Origin: Curvularia clavata
Taxonomy: Eukaryota
NCBI GenBank assembly: GCA_023920165.1
Contig: CP089277.1
Coordinates: forward strand, 2,170,001 to 2,234,000
DNA length: 64,000 nucleotides
Direction: 5' to 3'
Each line of letters starts with the position of its first letter. Position 1 is the stretch's first letter. The position numbers were made by a program, and so were the translations under genes. The notes under the pieces are model-generated. The model did not search any database and was not told the origin of the DNA. It saw only the letters and a program-made list of their open reading frames with translations. Positions 10,215 through 63,102 of this stretch are shown here, piece after piece.

Positions 10215-12168
10215 GTTGCAGCAACTTTGGAAAGGCAATGTGGTTTGGTCAGATTATTGGCCCGTCACGAGCGGTCTTATTGACCTTGGAGACGCTGTGG
10301 GCTGCAAGCTACTTATAGTACGTGCAAAGTACGTAATGTGGGTACTCCAAAGCTTATGTGATGCGGTAGCTGACGGTAACTACAGGGCCGATACATGTTC
10401 ATCTCAAACCGTCCAGGAACACGACGAGGCCGTTGCCTGAAAACATGCAGCCCAGCTAGCGGACGTGGTGTTTGTGTCACCGGGTACCCGACAGCAAATC
10501 AAGACGGCTATGCACTTCACGCTCCGCATCCGTACGCAGGAAGATGCTTGTGGCCCCGCCCATTGCAGACGAGGCACTGTCGCCATCTGTCAGCACCGTC
10601 AGTCAGTCGATGGTGGGCAGGGCGATGCTATAGGGTTACAGCAGTGGTGACGTCACTACCTTCGCCCGCACCAGGCAACGCTGCATCTCCGGACGAGCAA
10701 CCAACACCATCGTACAGCATGCACATCATGCATCTGCAGCACAGGCGGGCAAGACCAAGGCCGAACAAACCGCTCAGGTACCGCGACAAAGCGTCAAGAG
10801 GCTGTCCTACCTTCGTGCGTGGACAATGCCACTGCGGGGTTGCTCGACCTGCCTGCATAAGCGATGCCGTCACAGCGGAGACAGACCTGTCTCGGCACAT
10901 GTGCCTGAACAATGGAAGTGCAAAGGCTTAGCGACACAGTGGGGTGTTATACAAGCACTGTACAGAGCGGCTAGCACGGCAAACACGGTGCTGTTCTAGT
11001 GACTGACAAACCATGCTATATGATGGAACGCAGGTGCAGTGCAAACAGCGGAATGGAGCCGCAACACACAACATATCAACCTCGTAAGCACGGGCTTATT
11101 CATCTTTCGATTACTATACAGTGCATACCGTCTGCATAATCTGGCCATAGTCCTGATTGGCCATGTATGCCGGCGTTACACACATGCAGGTACGAACACG
11201 CTTCACGCGCCAAGGAGAAGCAGTATAACACAACTGCCAGACAGCTTTGTCAGTCGCACCTTATTATATTACGGGTGCGCTGGAGAGCATCTGGGAGTAA
11301 TGGTCACGGGTCCTTGGACTACGTCCACCTCCATGCTCGACGAGCCTCTCACCCCTTGCATACCAATCTTGGAATCACGCCACCTACTGACAACGGCAGC
11401 CCAGCATGTAGCACGGACGTGCGAAGCACGTTCAACAGCTCGAGAACAAGCCGAAAACCCAACACACATTGTCATGGCTAGAGCAAATAATGTTTCCTTA
11501 CTGGCGCCTCCTCTCTTATACGTCTCCAAACGCCAGAGTTTCCTGTATAAAGAGAAATCAACACCAACTTTCACCCACTCTTCTCAGCCCCGTGCCAATC
11601 TTGCGCTCTCCGAGTCTAACCAGCTCGCATAGATGGCGAGTCGCCCTTGCCAAATACGCTCCCGGCTGCGCTGGCGCAGGGTCATTTGCTGCAAGCCTCC
11701 CGGTACCCCTTTGTGATCATCCTGATTGTCGGAAACGAACAATAACAAAAACACGCCATCCCGAGAGATGTGGCTTGTCCCTGTTCCTGAGAACCAGGCT
11801 TGTATGCTGCAGCATGGCCCAGAGGCGTGCTTCTAGCCTTTGGCCACAACGTTCGTACTCTGATCGTGGTGGTAGCTTTCCTCCCCCTACTCCTCCAAAT
11901 CCTTCGTCCAGGCTTTGATTCCCTTTGGCTCTCGGTCAGTCCGAAGCTTGAGCTATTGGAACGGTCCTGGGTCAGGATGACTTGGCCTAGCCGTGGAAGC
12001 CCACGCCACTTAGCCATCGTAGGAAGGGCCTCTTCAGCCAGCTTTCTCGTTGGTGTTTGTTTGCCTAGCTGAGCGTAAGACAACAAGATCTATGGCTCCG
12101 CCGCAAGCTCCAACGTTGTGAACTCTCTCCCAAACTTTTCAACCCCTACACAGTCTACAACTGTCGAC

Positions 12169-12903
12169 ATGAGATGCCATACCAGCTGGCCCCACCCTTG
12201 GAACATTCCGACCAAGCAAAGCTTCTTCGTCAGCAATGAACAGGTTCTTGCCGATTATGCACATTTTTCAAGGCTGGAGCACCAGAAGGAACACTTGGAA
12301 ACCAATCTTGCCAATTGTGTTACTTACCTGCAGGCCCTACGCAAGAAGTACGCTCGGGGTGCACGACAGCTTGAAACCGACTCGTATTTACCGCGGAAGA
12401 AAAAGAAGAAGATACAGCAAAACATGCGTCAGCTCGAAAAGGAGATCAAATATCGAGAACGCGATGAAGAGGCTTTTCTCAACAACCTGCAAGCCTGCAA
12501 AACAAACATCTACCTGGCCGAGACAATGTCATCGTCGTCTAAATCGGCCCCGTCAACAATACCAGATCTTGCGTCGAACTCTACGTTATCCCCATATCCA
12601 GACGAGTCGGAGCTTACAGAGTTGAATTGGTTTGGTTTGGTGGACACGACAGCTCATTCTCCCATTCAGAAATCCAGCTACTCTCCCCTTGTCAACGAAA
12701 TGGCACCTGATGGCTATCTGAGCATGGATGAAATAGCAGTGACGACAAAGACTGGAGGGGGTCCTGGCTCTGGCAGCGAGTGTGTGGAACAGACCAACAC
12801 GACCTGGTGTTCACCCATGACCAGTGCGCCGACGCAGTTCGTATTACGCCCAGAAGCCGCGGTCTTCAAGCCTCGAGCCATCTACAAGGACCAGGATAGG
12901 TAA
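12169..12903 (+). CDS. Hypothetical protein with a coiled coil and a basic NLS-like patch
   Basis: ORF of about 244 codons from the first ATG. Heptad-like segment (LEHQKEHLETNLANCVTYLQALRKK...LEKEIKYRERDEEAF), PRKKKKK and a Ser/Thr-rich tail. True start uncertain. Confidence 0.65.
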   Translation: MRCHTSWPHPWNIPTKQSFFVSNEQVLADYAHFSRLEHQKEHLETNLANCVTYLQALRKKYARGARQLETDSYLPRKKKKKIQQNMRQLEKEIKYRERDEEAFLNNLQACKTNIYLAETMSSSSKSAPSTIPDLASNSTLSPYPDESELTELNWFGLVDTTAHSPIQKSSYSPLVNEMAPDGYLSMDEIAVTTKTGGGPGSGSECVEQTNTTWCSPMTSAPTQFVLRPEAAVFKPRAIYKDQDR

Positions 12904-13957
12904 ACTAGATCACAGCCTTGTCCACGTCCGCTTGTGACCACCACTGGCATTCGTAAGACCGCTTGGAATGACATTGGACATCAACGTCAACATCGACACC
13001 AACATCATCATCAACATCAACTCGACACAAGCACGTCGATGAAGGCTACCTGAGGGAATTGTTGAGAGATTGGGAAGTCATACCTGGACCCAGATTACCC
13101 CGCAGCAGGCAAAAACAGACAAGGGGCAGAGGGCGGCAGGTCTATGAGAAGTAGGACAAACTCTTTGTGATGGGAAGGAGTAATGGCAACACTCTATAGT
13201 ACCCCACTTCCCGTGCATACATGCGTATGTACATACAGGGCATAGTCGGGCTTTAATTGGCGCATCAGAAGTGTTTAAGCAATCTGAGTTCTTTTTCATT
13301 CGATGACGCTCGACCACTGTTTCTCACGCTTCCTATGCCATTGGGCTTGGGCAGGGGTGGTCTTCTCGTAGCACTTGGGCTACAGGACAGAAATTGGGCC
13401 ACCAGAAGTGTCTTGTAGTATGTACATGCGTCTTTGGACAGGATAGCATCAAGTCGTGTAATTGTAGTAAAAAAAATTCATTTGGCATGTGCCACGGCTG
13501 CATGTTGCTCGGGAGCTCGGCGCATGGCTGCCTCTTCGGGCCAGGTCGGCTTATGGCCCAGCCCCACACTGTGACGTGCCGTCGCCCGCGCAGCCCACGC
13601 TTCCTTTGCACGGCCGCTGCACGTACGAACTGCCCACCACCTTTCCCACTCTCCTCCCACGTTCAACATCCACACGCTAGCTGGAGTTCAACACTCTACG
13701 CCTTCTCGTTGGTCCGCATCAAAGAAGCGAGATTTGCGGCCACACAAAGACCAAAACGGAATCTAGAGCCCCGGCGGCGCACCCAGCTCCAATAGAGGAC
13801 AGTTCCGTACAGTACGGTAGCTGGCTCGCCTTCAACACGGCAGTTCACGCAGCACGCGCGCCTTGGCCCTTGCCGTGATATTAGCCGGGTGAAACCCTCG
13901 CCCACCTGCTGCTCAAGCATCTGCTTTTCGCTCCGTTGTCTGCATCTCACATCCAAC

Positions 13958-16900
13958 ATGGCTGATGTTAGCAACGGCTCCAAGGCCGACGGTAGCCAGT
14001 TACGAGAGCGGCCAAGCACTAAGCCACTACACCTCAACAGTGCAGACGATGCTAAGCAAAAGGTGTTGCAATTGAACGACGATGAAGACAAAAAGCACAA
14101 AGGTGATGCCAGCAAGAAGCGAACGTACGGAAGGACTCCGGACGGTACAGGTATGTTTCTAGTCTTCGAGCATGGCGAGAACAGAAGGCAACTCTCGTGC
14201 ATAGATGACCTACCCGCCCTCTCAAAGCATCCCCTCAGTACTAACTCTTCGGTGCAGTCTTCATTGTGCCCCAAACCCACGACATGGTCTCGCAGCTTCT
14301 CTCGCCCTCGCAGCCCAAGAACCTGTCGGATTTAGCAGTCCTTGCTGTGCTCGCCTCCATGATCTTGACCTTTTTTGCATTGCCCAAAAGCGCCCGCATA
14401 CCCGTATTCGCTATAGTCTTTCTGTTCTGGCGCGCTGGCTACAATGCAGGCATTGGCTGGCTGCTCGATGGCCAGTCCAAGCACAACCGCCTGGTCTTGT
14501 GGGCAAAACAGAGCCACATCTTCGAGAAACCCGAAACTGGCAAGAACCCAAATCCAGCCCTATACAAACTTCTCAAGCGTGAGCTAGAGATCAAGATCCC
14601 AGAGGATTACAAGTTTGAAGACGCTCCGCTTGAGTACAACACATGGCTGGTTTTTAGACGTGTTGTAGACCTGATTTTGATGTGTGATTTCGTGTCATAC
14701 TGCCTCTTCGCCATCGCCTGCTTCAACAGGCCCCAAGAAAGCTGGCTCCTGTGGGCTCTGCGATGGACGACGGGCATTGCCCTTTTTCTTTTCAACCTAT
14801 GGGTCAAACTTGACGCGCATCGAGTTGTCAAAGACTTTGCATGGTACTGGGGTGACTTCTTCTACCTCATCGACCAAAGCCTGACATTCGACGGCGTCTT
14901 TGAAATGGCACCACAGTAAGATTCTCTCTGCTAAGTCGTTGAGTTAAGCACATACTAACCGGCCACCCCTGCATACAGCCCAATGTACTCGATAGGGTAT
15001 GCCGGATACTATGGCATTGCTCTAATGACGGCAAGCTACAAGGTTCTCGCAATCTCCATCATCGCCCATGCTGCACAATTTGCTTTCTTGTCCATCGTTG
15101 AGGAACCACATATTGAAGCGACCTACAACCCAGCTCCTCCCCGCCGTACGCGCCATAATTCAGGGGAGGTTGCCCCGGAAGACCGTCCACGGACTAGCCA
15201 AACTGAGCTCGCTTTCGGCGAAACTGCCTACGATCCCTCCAAGCAACCTGCCCCAACGCACCACATTGTAGGACCTTTAAACACAGACTTCCATCGCTCC
15301 ATCGATGTCACGGTAGTATTGCTTTCATTTTACATGCTCTGTTTGGCAGTGCTGACTCCAAACACGTGGACGGTGAAGGCATTCTTATTCATCAATGCCT
15401 TGGGCTGGCGACTGTGGTATGCACTGGGACTAGGCTACATTCTAGACCGACAGTCCAAGAAGAAGAACTGGACCAAACACTTCATCAAGTATGGAGACAC
15501 CAAAGAAGAGGCTTGGCGCCAGTGGAAGTCCCTCTACCACATGAGTATGACAATGAGTCACGCAAGCTTTGTCGCAGTCGCCTGGAAGATGTACAGCCTT
15601 CCCTCAGACGGTCTCAATGGACTTGCACTCTTCCGACATGTCCTTGGCGTGGCCATGATTGCTCTTCAAATGTGGGTTGCCATGAGCATATATGAGTCTC
15701 TTGGAGAATTCGGATGGTTCTGCGGCGACTTCTTCTTTGACCCTCCTTCCAAATCGCTTACCTACAGTGGCATCTACCGCTTCTTGAACAATCCAGAGAG
15801 GGTTCTTGGACTCGCCGGCGTCTGGGGCATAGCCATCATAACATGGAGCCCAGCAGTCTTCTATCTCGCGACAACAGCTCACATCCTCAACCTGGCCTTC
15901 TTACAATTTGTGGAGAAGCCGCACGTCATCAAGGTAAGTTGAGATTTGATTTGAGCACGCAAAGACTTTGAGAATCTTTCAGACATCAACTCTGGAGTGG
16001 GGGCTAAGTGACACGCTCATCAATAAGATCAGTCCTCATAGTCTAAAGTACCACTTGCTAATCTTTTACATCTAGTTGTACGGCCGCAACCTCCGTGAAA
16101 TGTCCGGCGTTAGCAAAACCGTGCGTCAAGCATTGCCCGATCCAGTCCGCCAGTGGCAATCGGCAGCCGACCGGTACATCAATTCAATCGTGGAAAAAAT
16201 TGAAAGTTTCTTGGATGATTATAGGTCAAAGATTGCCACCAAATTTGACAAATTCGCCCATGAAACTACGAGTCTCTTTAAGGCGCCCCGGACCCGGATT
16301 ACGATCAGCCGGTCCTCTGAAGACATATCCGGTTTGGATGTCCGGCAATATAAGCTAGAGGTCGAAGGAACCTTACTGCCTCCAACAGTTGAGAAACAGA
16401 AGAATGGAGGCCGCGAAGGCGAACTCGCCAGGATTCCAGCTGCTCGGACAAACGACTTCAAGACACTCATCCTGGAATACGGCGCGCCCATCAAGGTCCG
16501 CTGGCAAGCGCCCCTGAATCATAGCAAGAAGGATTGGATTGGACTGTACATGGTTGCCGATAACCAGTCTCGCGAAATCACACACATCAGTTCGAATGGA
16601 AGATGGGTCGCCACTAACAAGGACATGTTTGACACTGCTCGTGCTGAAGACGGCATACTGGTCTCGGACAAGTTGGAGCCTGCAAACCCTGCCGATGAAG
16701 AATCTTCAGATTGCTACACTGGCGAAGTCGAGTTCCACGGAGATAAGCTTTGGTGGACTACTGGTGTCTTCGAATTCAGATACCACCATGGCGGTGGACA
16801 TCATGTCATGGCACTTTCACAGGCTTTTGAAATTCGAATTCCCAAGTTTGACGAGGACGATGTGGAAGTGGACGAGAATGGAACGATCCACCGGGCCGTG

Positions 16901-52298: not shown

Positions 52299-52436
52299 AA
52301 GAAGAAGAAGAAGAAGAAGAAGAAGAAGAAGAAGAAGAAGAAGAAGAAGAAGAAGAAGAAGAAGAAGAAGAAGAAGAAGAAGAAGAAGAAGAAGAAGAAG
52401 AAGAAGAAGAAGAAGAAGAAGAAGAAGAAGAAGAAG
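52299..52436 (+). repeat. Pure (AAG)46 trinucleotide microsatellite
   Basis: Uninterrupted 138-bp run between the convergent RRM gene and RIO2. Confidence 0.97.
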
Positions 52437-52576
52437 AGTAAAATTGATCACTCAGTCATGCAGAACTTTTCTTTTCTTATATCTACATACATCTCAGAAG
52501 CCATTCTTTTCTAGATGCAAATGGGTATCGCTGGAAAGGAGGGAGAACATGAAGAGAAAGTGCGTTAGATACCGAT

Positions 52577-59683: not shown

Positions 59684-61718
59684 ATTGGCGGCAATGGAAC
59701 GCTGGCGTGTTGTTGTTCCGTATTGGCCTGTGGGATATTTTGGAACAAGTGGTGGAGGATCGGAGGGGTGGAGGGGTCGTCGGCGTTTGAGTCATTCGCC
59801 AAGACCCGACAACCAGCCCAAAAATGATTGCTGTGAACATGCAATTTGATAATAGACCGTTTCCTAATCATTCACAACTAGTCATGTGTAATGGCATTTG
59901 AGATAGTTCATCTCTAAGTTAGTACAGCTTTTGTCGGCCTTTTTGCCTTCCTTGTTCCTTCGGGTGAGCCCATCCATCCTACTCCAGTAAATACAGATCA
60001 GTCGACCTACAAACCCAACTAGCGATGATTCAGCTTGTGCAACTCCCAAACAAAATGTGCGTGCTACATCATGCCTCAAACGAGCTCTCAGCATTCCGCA
60101 AGTGCACATAACGACAGGTTGCAATGGGTTTTCGAGCCCTTGCATAGCTTACACATAAACGGCTCCACGATTACACTCACATCAGTATTATCCGGTGTGG
60201 TAATGCTCTCTCGCAATTTGTCATGTTTATTCAATAAAATCCAGTACAAAGAATACCGTACAGCCTGTCTGTTTTGTAAAGCTAGTAGCACCCGTTATAG
60301 GTCGCGTTCCTCGATCTCTGCGATCACCACGCCGCCTCCTTTGATCTTGGCCGAGACAAGGATGATCTCCCACCCAGTCCCACCGGAGAGCGACCGGATT
60401 TTCTCAGCTGATCGATTCCTATAGCCTCGAGTCCAAATACGGCTGTAAACAAAGACACCTGTCGTAGAGCCAGCAGCTACTGCGGTTGGGGGAGTACGGT
60501 ATCCGCTAGTGAAAGACTGAAAACCAAATCCTCTGAATCGGAGAACAACCCACAAGAGCACATTACCCTATTTACTCCTAAAAAACACATGTGGGACCAG
60601 GGAAAGCACTGTCTACTGTATTGTCAGCACAGGACCTTGCCATTACAATGCCGATCATGGTCACTTCCATTCGAGACTTATTGAAAGGACTACCGAATAC
60701 AAGCCTTAGTTCCTTCACATATTTTTTCCTTCCCTGGACATATACACATGGCGAATTTTGAGCCTCGAGTCAAGCAATTGTACTCAGCGTTCTGTGTTGA
60801 ACACGCCTCGAAAACTCTCAGCACGTCTACGTCATCAGAAGCACCACCTAGAGCGATCCTTGGTAATAATGGTCGCGTGATCAGTGAGATTGAATCCACT
60901 ATTTGGCAAAACGCGAACCGTTCCCCGGGAGCAATCGCGTCATGTATCGCCAGTAGAGCCCGGTGTAGGCTCTTCAGTACGTTGCTTGAGTGCTAAGGAT
61001 CATAGTCCAGATATGCAGGCTTCGTATACCGCCAGCTCAATAGCTGAAAGCAAGATACGGCATAGAATAATGACTCAAAACTAGATCTAGGATATGTTCA
61101 CTTCATAGAAATGACGAAAGCCTTCTTGGTTTCGAGGACATCTCACAATCAATCCACTCCCTCTGCGATGAGCCACTTGGACCTGATAGAAATTTGGGCA
61201 AGGAATACAAGAGGCGTTGGAAATTCTCCCACTAGTGTTCCTCGGCCTCTAATTAGAAAAGGGCGCAAGGGTTTGAGAGCATCACTGGAGTCTCATTTAG
61301 AAGAGAAACTGTCCAGACCAAGCCAAGGATTGAACCACCCTGGAAGACGCGGCAGAAGTACAGCGCAGCATTTATACACCAAATAATGAGCGTTCCAAAC
61401 CGCTGGTTATAGGGTTGAAGATCCAAATTTCAACCGAATAGCCAAAATCCCATGTTGTGTACGATGACGCATTTTACATGGGGCCCAACGTCATACGCTG
61501 ATGGAATTCTAGACCCGCGATGGCCGCGTTTCATATGGGGGAGTCAATTTTCTCCTTCAGCCAGAATCAACACCATAAGAGCTATCGTGAACTATCATGA
61601 CTGCATGTTCCATGCGAAGCCCGGGTTAATGAACTATGTTTCTAAACCTATAAGCGTCTAGCCTCTCAAAACACTTGTTACACCAGACATACGTCATTTC
61701 CGATATTATTTGCACGCC

Positions 61719-62309
61719 ATGACTATACTGTCGAACCTTGCCTCAAAAGTAAAAGATATTCGCCTAGTTCCTCCGACAGAAGAAGAAACATCTTCTTCCA
61801 CACAAGAAGCTCGGAGCTCAGAAGAAGCTTCATCCAAGCCCAAACGACCAATTCTCGAGATAACGTCGTATGACCGCTTCACACCCCCTTCTCCTAAACC
61901 AGACCTTGAATACGACTGCCGCATAACCAACAATCCGTCTCCTGAGATCCGCAAAACGTGCACAGGGCTCGACGCTGCTCTGCAAGATGAGCTCATGAGC
62001 CGTAGCTCCTTCAGTGCCCTAGTCGAGCGCGCTGAGCACGAGATCAGAAATCTCATGGAGGTGGAAGACGTAAGGGCTAGCAGGGCGGGCGAAACGGCTA
62101 TCGTGAGAGTAGGATGTCTGTGCGGTAGTGGACATCATCGCAGTGTAGCGTTTGCGGAGAAGCTGGGACAGGTGCGTTGGTGTGAGCAGGGGGAGTGGGA
62201 GGTTATCGTTAAACACCGGGATTTGACAAGTGGGGTAGAGGAAATGAAGAGGGTGAAGAGCGAGAAGAGTCGAGAGAAAAAGGGAAAAGCTAGTGAGAAG
62301 GGAGGTTAG
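61719..62309 (+). CDS. Stand-alone RapZ (YhbJ) C-terminal-domain-like protein
   Basis: Intronless 196-aa ORF. LEITSY, YDCR.TNNP, CTGLD, VRVGCLCGSGHHRSVAFAEKL and VKHRDL occur in the same order as bacterial RapZ CTD motifs recalled from memory (FESFG, FDVRFLPNP, MTGLD, AIGCTGGKHRSVYIAEQL, SRHRTL). Confidence 0.8.
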   Translation: MTILSNLASKVKDIRLVPPTEEETSSSTQEARSSEEASSKPKRPILEITSYDRFTPPSPKPDLEYDCRITNNPSPEIRKTCTGLDAALQDELMSRSSFSALVERAEHEIRNLMEVEDVRASRAGETAIVRVGCLCGSGHHRSVAFAEKLGQVRWCEQGEWEVIVKHRDLTSGVEEMKRVKSEKSREKKGKASEKGG

Positions 62310-62409: not shown

Positions 62410-63102
62410 TTATCTTTGGGATAGCCAGGGGACCTGAGTTAGTTTGAACGGGTTGTATTTCTCCCCATCTGCAGCGCCACATCTCCACGCCTCAAGCCTT
62501 CCCACAAACGATCCTGGCAGCGATATCTCAGAAGCAGTATCGTCCTGTATCTCTTCTGCCGTCTTTCCTTTCTTTCGTGCTTCCTCTCGCAGTTCCTGTT
62601 TCCTCTCCTCCCGCCGCTTCCTTTTTCTCTCCTCCCGCAACTTCTTTCTCCTCTCCTCGTATTGCCTCAACTCCGACTCAGCTGCGTCTCTTGATTTCTG
62701 AGCCCATTGGCCTAGTTTTCTTATGCCACGCACTGCTGCATGCATCTTCCTTGAAGTCCCCTTGCTGTCATCAATATCTTTCGCGTGCTTCCTCGCAATC
62801 CTAACTCCATGCTCCCTCTGCCAGATGTGCCAAATATCCTCGTCCCATGACTCTCTCTTTGCTACAGCTTTGTATTGCGCCCACCAGTTTTTCATCTTGG
62901 GTGAGGTCTCATCTACGTCGTAGACGCGCCAGCCCCATGCAACGGCGTCCTTGGCTATGGCCTGGTTTCGTGCAGTGATATAGGGGTCGTTGGATGGTGG
63001 TAAGGCGATGTATTCTGCTGTTGTTGTTGGATAATGCGGGCTATGGGGATACGAGAGGTAGGCAGGTTCTTGGTAGTAGATTGGAATGGCGAGAATGATC
63101 AT
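62410..63102 (-). CDS. Hypothetical protein with a charged coiled coil
   Basis: 230-aa ORF with a Trp-rich middle and a K/R/E-rich helix (YEERRKKLREERKRKRREERKQELREEARKK). Start uncertain. Confidence 0.6.
   Translation of the reverse strand: MIILAIPIYYQEPAYLSYPHSPHYPTTTAEYIALPPSNDPYITARNQAIAKDAVAWGWRVYDVDETSPKMKNWWAQYKAVAKRESWDEDIWHIWQREHGVRIARKHAKDIDDSKGTSRKMHAAVRGIRKLGQWAQKSRDAAESELRQYEERRKKLREERKRKRREERKQELREEARKKGKTAEEIQDDTASEISLPGSFVGRLEAWRCGAADGEKYNPFKLTQVPWLSQR

Follow-up and report, generated by a model that had tools for sequence, protein, structure and literature searches.

A stand-alone RapZ C-terminal domain protein in Curvularia clavata and its candidate phosphate-binding cysteine loop

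Our analysis identified the 196-amino-acid product of a forward-strand open reading frame (ORF) in Curvularia clavata as a stand-alone RapZ C-terminal domain. The gene lies near the end of a 64,000-nucleotide stretch of contig CP089277.1, which was analyzed as a whole and is referred to here as the window. From its conserved cysteine loop, we judge the chances evenly balanced that this probably cytosolic protein is a small cysteine-dependent phosphatase of the RapZ-C family. Bacterial RapZ has been studied in depth as an RNA adaptor, and its essential residue Cys247 lacks an explained role. Its one-domain relatives in fungi offer the simplest system for testing whether RapZ-C is an enzyme. If it is, these relatives would constitute a new family of eukaryotic phosphatases that extends over ascomycetes and basidiomycetes, and the origin of a metabolite-sensing RNA-binding protein from an enzyme would be explained. 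The coding region holds the following features.

61719 to 62309, + strand: ORF of 196 aa encoding the stand-alone RapZ C-terminal domain protein, supported by RNA contigs and dN/dS
61719 to 61847, + strand: N-terminal leader, residues 1 to 43, Ser/Glu rich, with low model confidence (from sequence and model)
61857 to 62225, + strand: PF22740 domain, residues 47 to 169, supported by Pfam, AlphaFold pLDDT, and the Z score to 5O5S/5O5Q
62121 to 62144, + strand: predicted phosphate-binding loop C135-x5-R141-S142, equivalent to E. coli C247-R253-S254, from alignment and conservation
62214 to 62222, + strand: H166-R167-D168 motif at the end of the last strand, with D168 as the candidate general acid, from conservation and strand order
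62226 to 62306, + strand: C-terminal tail, Lys/Glu rich, with a predicted helix at residues 171 to 194 (from sequence and model)

Domain searches bore out the first-pass annotation, made from the letters alone, which had proposed a RapZ C-terminal domain. PF22740 matched residues 47 to 169 with an E value of 9e-15, covering profile positions 4 to 120 of 121 and scoring 55.4 bits against a Pfam gathering cutoff of 27, and the NCBIfam RapZ model NF003828 aligned at its positions 160 to 278 only, with 39.8 bits against a full-length cutoff of 244. A profile built from 33 fungal homologs retrieved three RapZ sequences from the PDB at E values of 5e-8 to 2e-7, including E. coli RapZ at 5e-8, the sole other match having an E value of 1.3; the window protein searched as a single sequence had zero matches among the PDB sequences. 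The AlphaFold model, computed from 113 sequences, has a mean pLDDT of 89 and values of 92 to 99 across the PF22740 stretch, and a single-sequence fold prediction of the domain (pLDDT of 54) was set aside. Foldseek, one of the checks proposed with the annotation, ranked RapZ first for this model (E value of 5.5e-6). An exhaustive structural aligner superimposed the model on the E. coli RapZ C-terminal domain (RapZ-CTD; 5O5S and 5O5Q) with Z scores of 17.1 to 17.3 and an rmsd of 1.8 over 119 residues at 24% identity; after RapZ, the next fold reached a Z score of 5.8.

The P-loop half of RapZ is absent, as the annotation had stated. A stop codon lies in frame 19 codons 5' of the ATG, and one lies 6 to 30 codons 5' in nine of nine related loci; PF03668, the RapZ P-loop N-terminal domain, does not occur in the same chain, and an exon-wise search of the organism's own genome found no candidate for it. 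The RNA contigs contain no intron across the ORF start, and these gap-free contigs, together with the upstream in-frame stops here and in the related loci, rule out a missed N-terminal exon. E. coli RapZ (5O5S, 5O5Q, and 8B0I), by contrast, carries the P-loop domain and has sRNA and RNase E partners, whereas the window protein has no known partner of either kind. The domain is flanked, as described, by a Ser/Glu-rich leader and a Lys-rich tail, the latter being Lys/Glu rich with a net charge of +4. Residues 1 to 20 (window positions 61719 to 61778) are conserved among Pleosporales homologs and are basic and hydrophobic; judged by sequence, they could be a targeting signal.

The gene is expressed and conserved. 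Transcript evidence comes from 4 of 22 listed sequencing runs; none of these is on record as RNA, and spliced joints were used instead. Since such joints occur in the neighboring RPN1 and eIF2B-alpha genes in all four runs, the runs hold mRNA. Contigs from two of them (X1 and X3) span the whole ORF without a gap, which agrees with the annotated intronless ORF, a third (X6) covers it except for its final codons, and the fourth (X18) covers it in two pieces; such contigs cannot give the expression level or the transcript start, and depth was not used for ranking genes. One contig skips an intron upstream of the ATG, which indicates a + strand transcript:

61459 to 61512, + strand: GT..AG intron in the 5' untranslated stretch, from one X1 contig (depth of 4)

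Core dN/dS values against nine related metagenome loci are 0.07 to 0.20, at dS values of 1.4 to 2.3, near saturation, and by this sequence comparison, the gene is under purifying selection. Pfam identified eIF2B-alpha, RPN1, and RIO2 as neighbors in the window, and a Furry/TAO3-like ORF and a P450-reductase-like ORF were recognized by eye; the fungal neighborhood thus holds housekeeping genes only, with no amino-sugar gene among them. eIF2B-alpha is also found upstream in five of the nine related loci and a convergent downstream ORF in four of the nine, several contigs being too short to show either. That the gene might be an artifact, a contaminant, or a decayed remnant is extremely improbable, as it sits on a 4.4-Mb contig among intron-bearing genes, has neighbors common to related fungal loci, is under purifying selection, and is covered by contigs from runs with spliced RNA; contamination is ruled out by the RNA contigs and the common neighbors.

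Two observations concern this neighborhood. The convergent ORF (window positions 62410 to 63102, - strand) encodes 230 aa with no Pfam match over the cutoff and has 37 to 50% identity to ORFs in the same place in loci L004, L006, L008, and L010. In locus L004 (positions 10386 to 16552), the RapZ-C gene has RIO2, RPN1, and a further gene on its downstream side; in the window, these genes lie upstream of eIF2B-alpha, a local rearrangement.

The expectation that similar fungal proteins already exist in databases proved correct. UniRef and NCBI hold fungal entries named RapZ C-terminal domain-containing protein, with the same family and architecture as the window protein, which is 76% identical to Bipolaris entries, 67 to 68% identical to those of Alternaria, and 36 to 48% identical to those of Xylariales, basidiomycete entries being further out. 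The fungal gene is one more member of an annotated family that awaits experiment; a literature coverage that lacked the most relevant paper yielded no functional study of fungal RapZ-C proteins. A phmmer search gave 53 matches among 181 candidates and 244 among 50% representatives, and a profile search gave 1135 matches of 5603. Named members, from 30 matches looked up, belong to Pleosporales, Xylariales, one Sordariales, one lichen fungus, three agarics, and the choanoflagellate Acanthoeca, and ESM Atlas clusters of fungal RapZ-C have 61 to 79 members. Stand-alone RapZ-C also occurs in bacteria, phages, and Streptomyces plasmids. A structure search (BFVD) found the domain in Yasminevirus, Klosneuvirus, Marseillevirus, Pithovirus, Hyperionvirus, and Harvfovirus, all of which were left out of the tree; no relative turned up in IMG/VR, which was scanned with P0150 and alignment A1.

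The genome itself holds a second RapZ-C gene, a distant paralog on contig C5 (L002:1003-1881). Its 292-aa product has a long leader rich in Pro and Arg, carries a C-HAGTH-RS loop, and is without the H-R-D acid, and its best match among the fetched proteins has only 31% identity. The gene adjoins one that resembles ribophorin I by eye.

In a fast maximum-likelihood tree (85 sequences, 112 columns, arbitrary root), the window protein nests with ascomycete and basidiomycete sequences (SH-aLRT of 97.9). A wider group adds the choanoflagellate and further sequences (93.4), and its sister comprises one phage sequence and one short protein (93.8); a FastTree of 177 sequences broadly agrees. We refer to the group as eukaryote-type, a working label, and some of its rows may be viral. 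The bacterial origin that the first-pass annotation had suggested stands in part: nesting among fungal sequences rules out a recent horizontal transfer into this fungus, and the sequences point to an old acquisition by eukaryotes, for which a bacterial source is possible.

The loop C135-x5-R141-S142 is contained in GCLCGSGHHRSVAFAEKL (residues 132 to 149). In the model, it occupies residues 135 to 141, following a strand (residues 128 to 134) and preceding a helix (residues 141 to 150), which is the placement of a CX5R(S/T) loop. The annotation was right that the loop is intact and fits the phosphatase pattern, but the loop is a property of the whole family, as E. coli RapZ also has it (C247-TGGKH-R253-S254); this rules out a fungus-specific gain of CX5R. 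The Cys is conserved in 173 of 177 nonredundant sequences (less than 75% identity; 294 of 325 had enough core, and the C5 paralog and one phage protein did not), and the G, H, R, and S are nearly invariant in all four architectures. The same domain and Cys loop are found in bacterial kinase fusions and in stand-alone bacterial, phage, and giant-virus RapZ-C.

Around this core, the pocket differs. Relative to E. coli RapZ-CTD, the window protein keeps C247, G250, H252, R253, S254, D182, R184, N188-P189, T199-G200, and H276-R277, and H190 is changed to S74, T248 to G136, G249 to S137, K270 to W160, and T278 to D168. Among the residues that present GlmZ (K170, H190, C247, T248, G249, and R253), C247 and R253 are kept, K170 is Arg, and the rest are S, G, and S. 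The bacterial forms, which occur in peptidoglycan-recycling or mobile-element contexts, read C-T-G-G nearly without exception (T after the Cys in 42 of 45 and then G in 43 of 45) and have an aromatic residue at position 190 in 35 of 36 sequences outside the kinase fusions, whereas in the eukaryote-type group (n = 132), the residues at the first position after the Cys include E (41), A (31), G (26), and V (9), those at the second include R (33), S (27), M (21), and L (12), and position 190 is P/S and variable, with the aromatic lost. In tyrosine phosphatase (PTP) loops, backbone amides hold the phosphate, and the free variation after the Cys in the eukaryote-type group could be tolerated because backbone amides would do so here. 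By alignment, the residues shaping the E. coli RNA contact drift in fungi and the Cys-Gly-His-Arg-Ser core stays.

The accessible text of several studies on E. coli RapZ bears on this pocket. Its residues H190, T248, G249, H252, and R253 hold malonate or sulfate (PMC5737377); the dimer residues F181/D182 correspond by alignment to Y65/D66 of the window protein. The pocket also contacts the GlmZ backbone, and the substitutions H190A, T248D, G249W, R253A, C247A, and C247S inactivate the protein, with GlmZ processing as the readout; the C247 variants also lose RNA binding, and the authors propose that the C247 thiol may have a catalytic role (PMC9841335). The isolated RapZ-CTD binds GlcN6P stably with a KD of 10 nM, and its authors regard conservation of the pocket as extending across bacteria and that of the RNA-binding part as confined to Enterobacteriaceae (PMC7073468). 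With RNA binding lost in C247 variants and GlcN6P bound stably, the Cys of RapZ-CTD may be structural. The accessible portions of the literature contain no report of phosphatase activity for any RapZ-CTD.

In the phosphatase mechanism that we infer, the C135-x5-R141-S142 loop would cradle a phosphate monoester, attack by C135 would yield a phospho-cysteine, and the role of general acid/base would fall to D168, together with H140/H166. Position 168, after the terminal HR, carries an acidic residue (Asp or Glu) in 165 of 177 sequences. E. coli, with Thr, is the sole exception among 20 full-length RapZ proteins; in 10 further records, picked from 40 listed of 83 matched, Klebsiella, Proteus, and Aeromonas have Thr, Neisseria has Gln, and the other six have Asp or Glu. 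The last strand (residues 161 to 166) comes after the loop and the helix and ends in H166-R167-D168, and because of this order, its end should sit beside the Cys. Strand order in the model thus suggests that D168 is placed like a general acid near C135.

Structural and profile comparisons are consistent with such an enzyme. Cysteine-dependent dual-specificity phosphatases (DSPs) and tyrosine phosphatases (PF00782) share the strand-CX5R(S)-helix arrangement with the window protein, possibly in register. Of the 50 best-ranked structural matches, 19 are named in their titles as dual-specificity or tyrosine phosphatases, at weak Z scores of 4.1 to 5.3, and 7 are phosphofructokinases, whose Z scores of 4.3 to 5.8 equal or exceed those of the phosphatases; all of these Z scores fall in a range that the aligner calls a common arrangement. 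The alignment with 9C49, of which the end points were given, closes with the pair 154/321 and, if ungapped, puts C135 on C302, the catalytic Cys of that protein (PMC11289409). Profile comparison aligned the Cys with the DSP Cys (score of 28.6) and with DUF488 (28.2), against maxima of 16.4 and 16.8 in 40 shuffles, with profile probabilities of only 38 to 47%; the DSP set comprised seven segments of this genome selected by motif, which makes it partly circular, and the DUF488 set came from 30 loci, of which 16 were extracted and at least one was in the wrong frame. PF00782 was not listed for the window protein at E values up to 1 and matched 1 of 113 homologs (E value of 0.0038). The window protein also differs from DSPs in that Z is at most 5.3, no His precedes the Cys, and the candidate acid follows the last strand, whereas in DSPs it lies in an upstream loop.

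The phosphatase-superfamily link is probably not new, having been made already by Burroughs and Aravind in 2023, whose abstract reportedly defines the clade and predicts sugar and nucleotide phosphate chemistry. Our literature searches found no link of RapZ to rhodanese and phosphatase or of YvcJ to pNPP. In its accessible part, one paper places DUF4326 in the rhodanese-phosphatase superfamily (PMC9503650); our DUF488 profile comparison agrees weakly with that superfamily placement.

Of the three functions offered in the first-pass annotation (sugar-phosphate sensor, RNA-binding protein, and phosphatase), the last is the best-supported prediction, and the other two draw on the same pocket. A noncatalytic phospho-metabolite sensor that binds GlcN6P or a similar ligand and signals through a protein partner would be in keeping with GlcN6P binding by the isolated E. 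coli domain and with its authors' view of a pocket conserved well beyond the RNA-binding part (PMC7073468), and the equivalents of H252, R253, and C247, as well as the dimer residues Y65/D66, are kept. We nevertheless regard a sensor as unlikely, since the equivalents of H190, T248, and G249, where mutations inactivate E. coli RapZ, are P/S and variable, no output domain is attached, and mere binding would not need an invariant Cys. Comparably unlikely is an RNA or nucleic acid binder whose pocket would hold the backbone of a duplex or a phosphorylated end and possibly process it. The E. coli pocket does contact the GlmZ backbone (PMC9841335). Four of seven basic RNA contacts are still basic (R53, R68, R78, and K79), one phage copy adjoins a helicase, and the eukaryote-type cores have a mean charge of +2.0 versus -1.8 to -3.9 in bacterial cores; the core of the window protein, however, has a net charge of -3, the equivalents of K270, K281, R282, R211, and R238 are W, S, G, S, and T, H190 is lost, and the protein lacks the N-terminal domain with which a tetramer would be built. 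Furthermore, fungi are not known to have GlmZ or RNase E.

A thiol or redox enzyme, performing rhodanese-like sulfur transfer or carrying an oxidation-sensitive Cys with C133 as second thiol, seems to us quite improbable. The rhodanese-phosphatase superfamily does include thiotransferases, a C133-x-C135 pair is found in the close family, and conserved CRE-like sites upstream of the gene (see below) would fit a stress regulon. C133 occurs in only 90 of 195 rows, however, none of the top 50 structural rows is a rhodanese by title, and a six-residue loop with Arg is the phosphatase pattern.

If the window protein is an enzyme, its substrate is perhaps a small sugar or amino-sugar phosphate, although we hold this at somewhat less than an even chance; a nucleotide or nucleic acid end would come next, with a lower but appreciable likelihood, followed by a protein or other substrate. 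Fifty of 52 long homologs are fusions to an AmgK-like kinase, and 80 kinase-fusion loci contain a MurU-like gene in 79 cases, MurQ in 28, and MurA in 24; these loci are mostly from Acidobacteriota and not independent, with one representative scanned per cluster, and their AmgK and MurU scores lie below the NCBIfam cutoffs. A Nudix fusion cluster has 116 members, with one Nudix neighbor elsewhere, and one phage copy lies beside deacetylase, epimerase, and aminotransferase genes, another beside the helicase gene. By analogy, the bacterial context would point to amino sugars, and the Nudix and phage contexts would widen the choice to nucleotide or nucleic acid phosphates. The fungal ligand may differ, because the bacterial pocket is remodeled in the eukaryote-type group, and a link to hexosamine or chitin is a guess by analogy with bacterial relatives only. 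In Bacteroides thetaiotaomicron, the control lists contain PF22740 without PF03668, which would fit an AmgK-like kinase fusion.

PTPs without a general acid become substrate traps, and by analogy, enterobacterial RapZ, with T278, may be one. Loss of the general acid would explain both the tight hold of E. coli RapZ on GlcN6P and its need for the Cys. Against this idea, Aeromonas and Neisseria are also without the acid, as is the C5 paralog, and a rough pattern count did not show it in about one in four kinase fusions. A broader scenario, which we consider speculative and rather unlikely as a whole, would have fungal, choanoflagellate, and giant-virus RapZ-C as active sugar- or amino-sugar-phosphate phosphatases that use the H-R-D acid and retain the ancestral chemistry. 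Enterobacterial RapZ would then be a natural pseudo-phosphatase that traps substrate, having lost the acid (T278), and that turned into a GlcN6P/sRNA sensor, and the fungal enzyme would act as a stress-regulated hexosamine valve.

The upstream region holds a pair of sites that may bear on regulation:

61464 to 61494, no strand assigned: two CRE-like half-sites in inverted orientation (ATGACG ... CGTCAT), 5' of the ORF, the only such pair in the window

Within 450 nt upstream of the ORF, ATGACG or its reverse complement is present at least twice, both in the window and in nine of nine related loci, against an expectation of 0.2 to 0.36; the motif was chosen after the alignment had been seen, and the coding cores of two of the nine loci are identical. 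The motif corresponds to half of the Aspergillus nidulans AtfA consensus ATGACGTCA, as given in the accessible text of PMC12731236. RapZ terms had 0 matches in the supplementary file of that paper, whose gene tables may not carry the name. Judged by these sites, ATF/CREB-type (AtfA) stress or spore control of the gene is plausible.

Further upstream, window positions 59787 to 59795 read TTGAGTCAT, which we take to be a Gcn4/CpcA-like site; it lies about 105 nt upstream of eIF2B-alpha and is kept in L004, L005, L007, L008, and L012. The intergenic stretch from 59700 to 61720 has no protein-level conservation. Within it, at 60613 to 60668 (- strand), X3 and X6 contigs from two studies skip 56 nt bounded by GG...AG, a noncanonical intron; the transcript covers about 59865 to 61458, and the longest ATG ORF of its spliced form has 87 aa and is without conservation. 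Elsewhere in the window, positions 52299 to 52437 hold a short-unit repeat of more than 100 nt.
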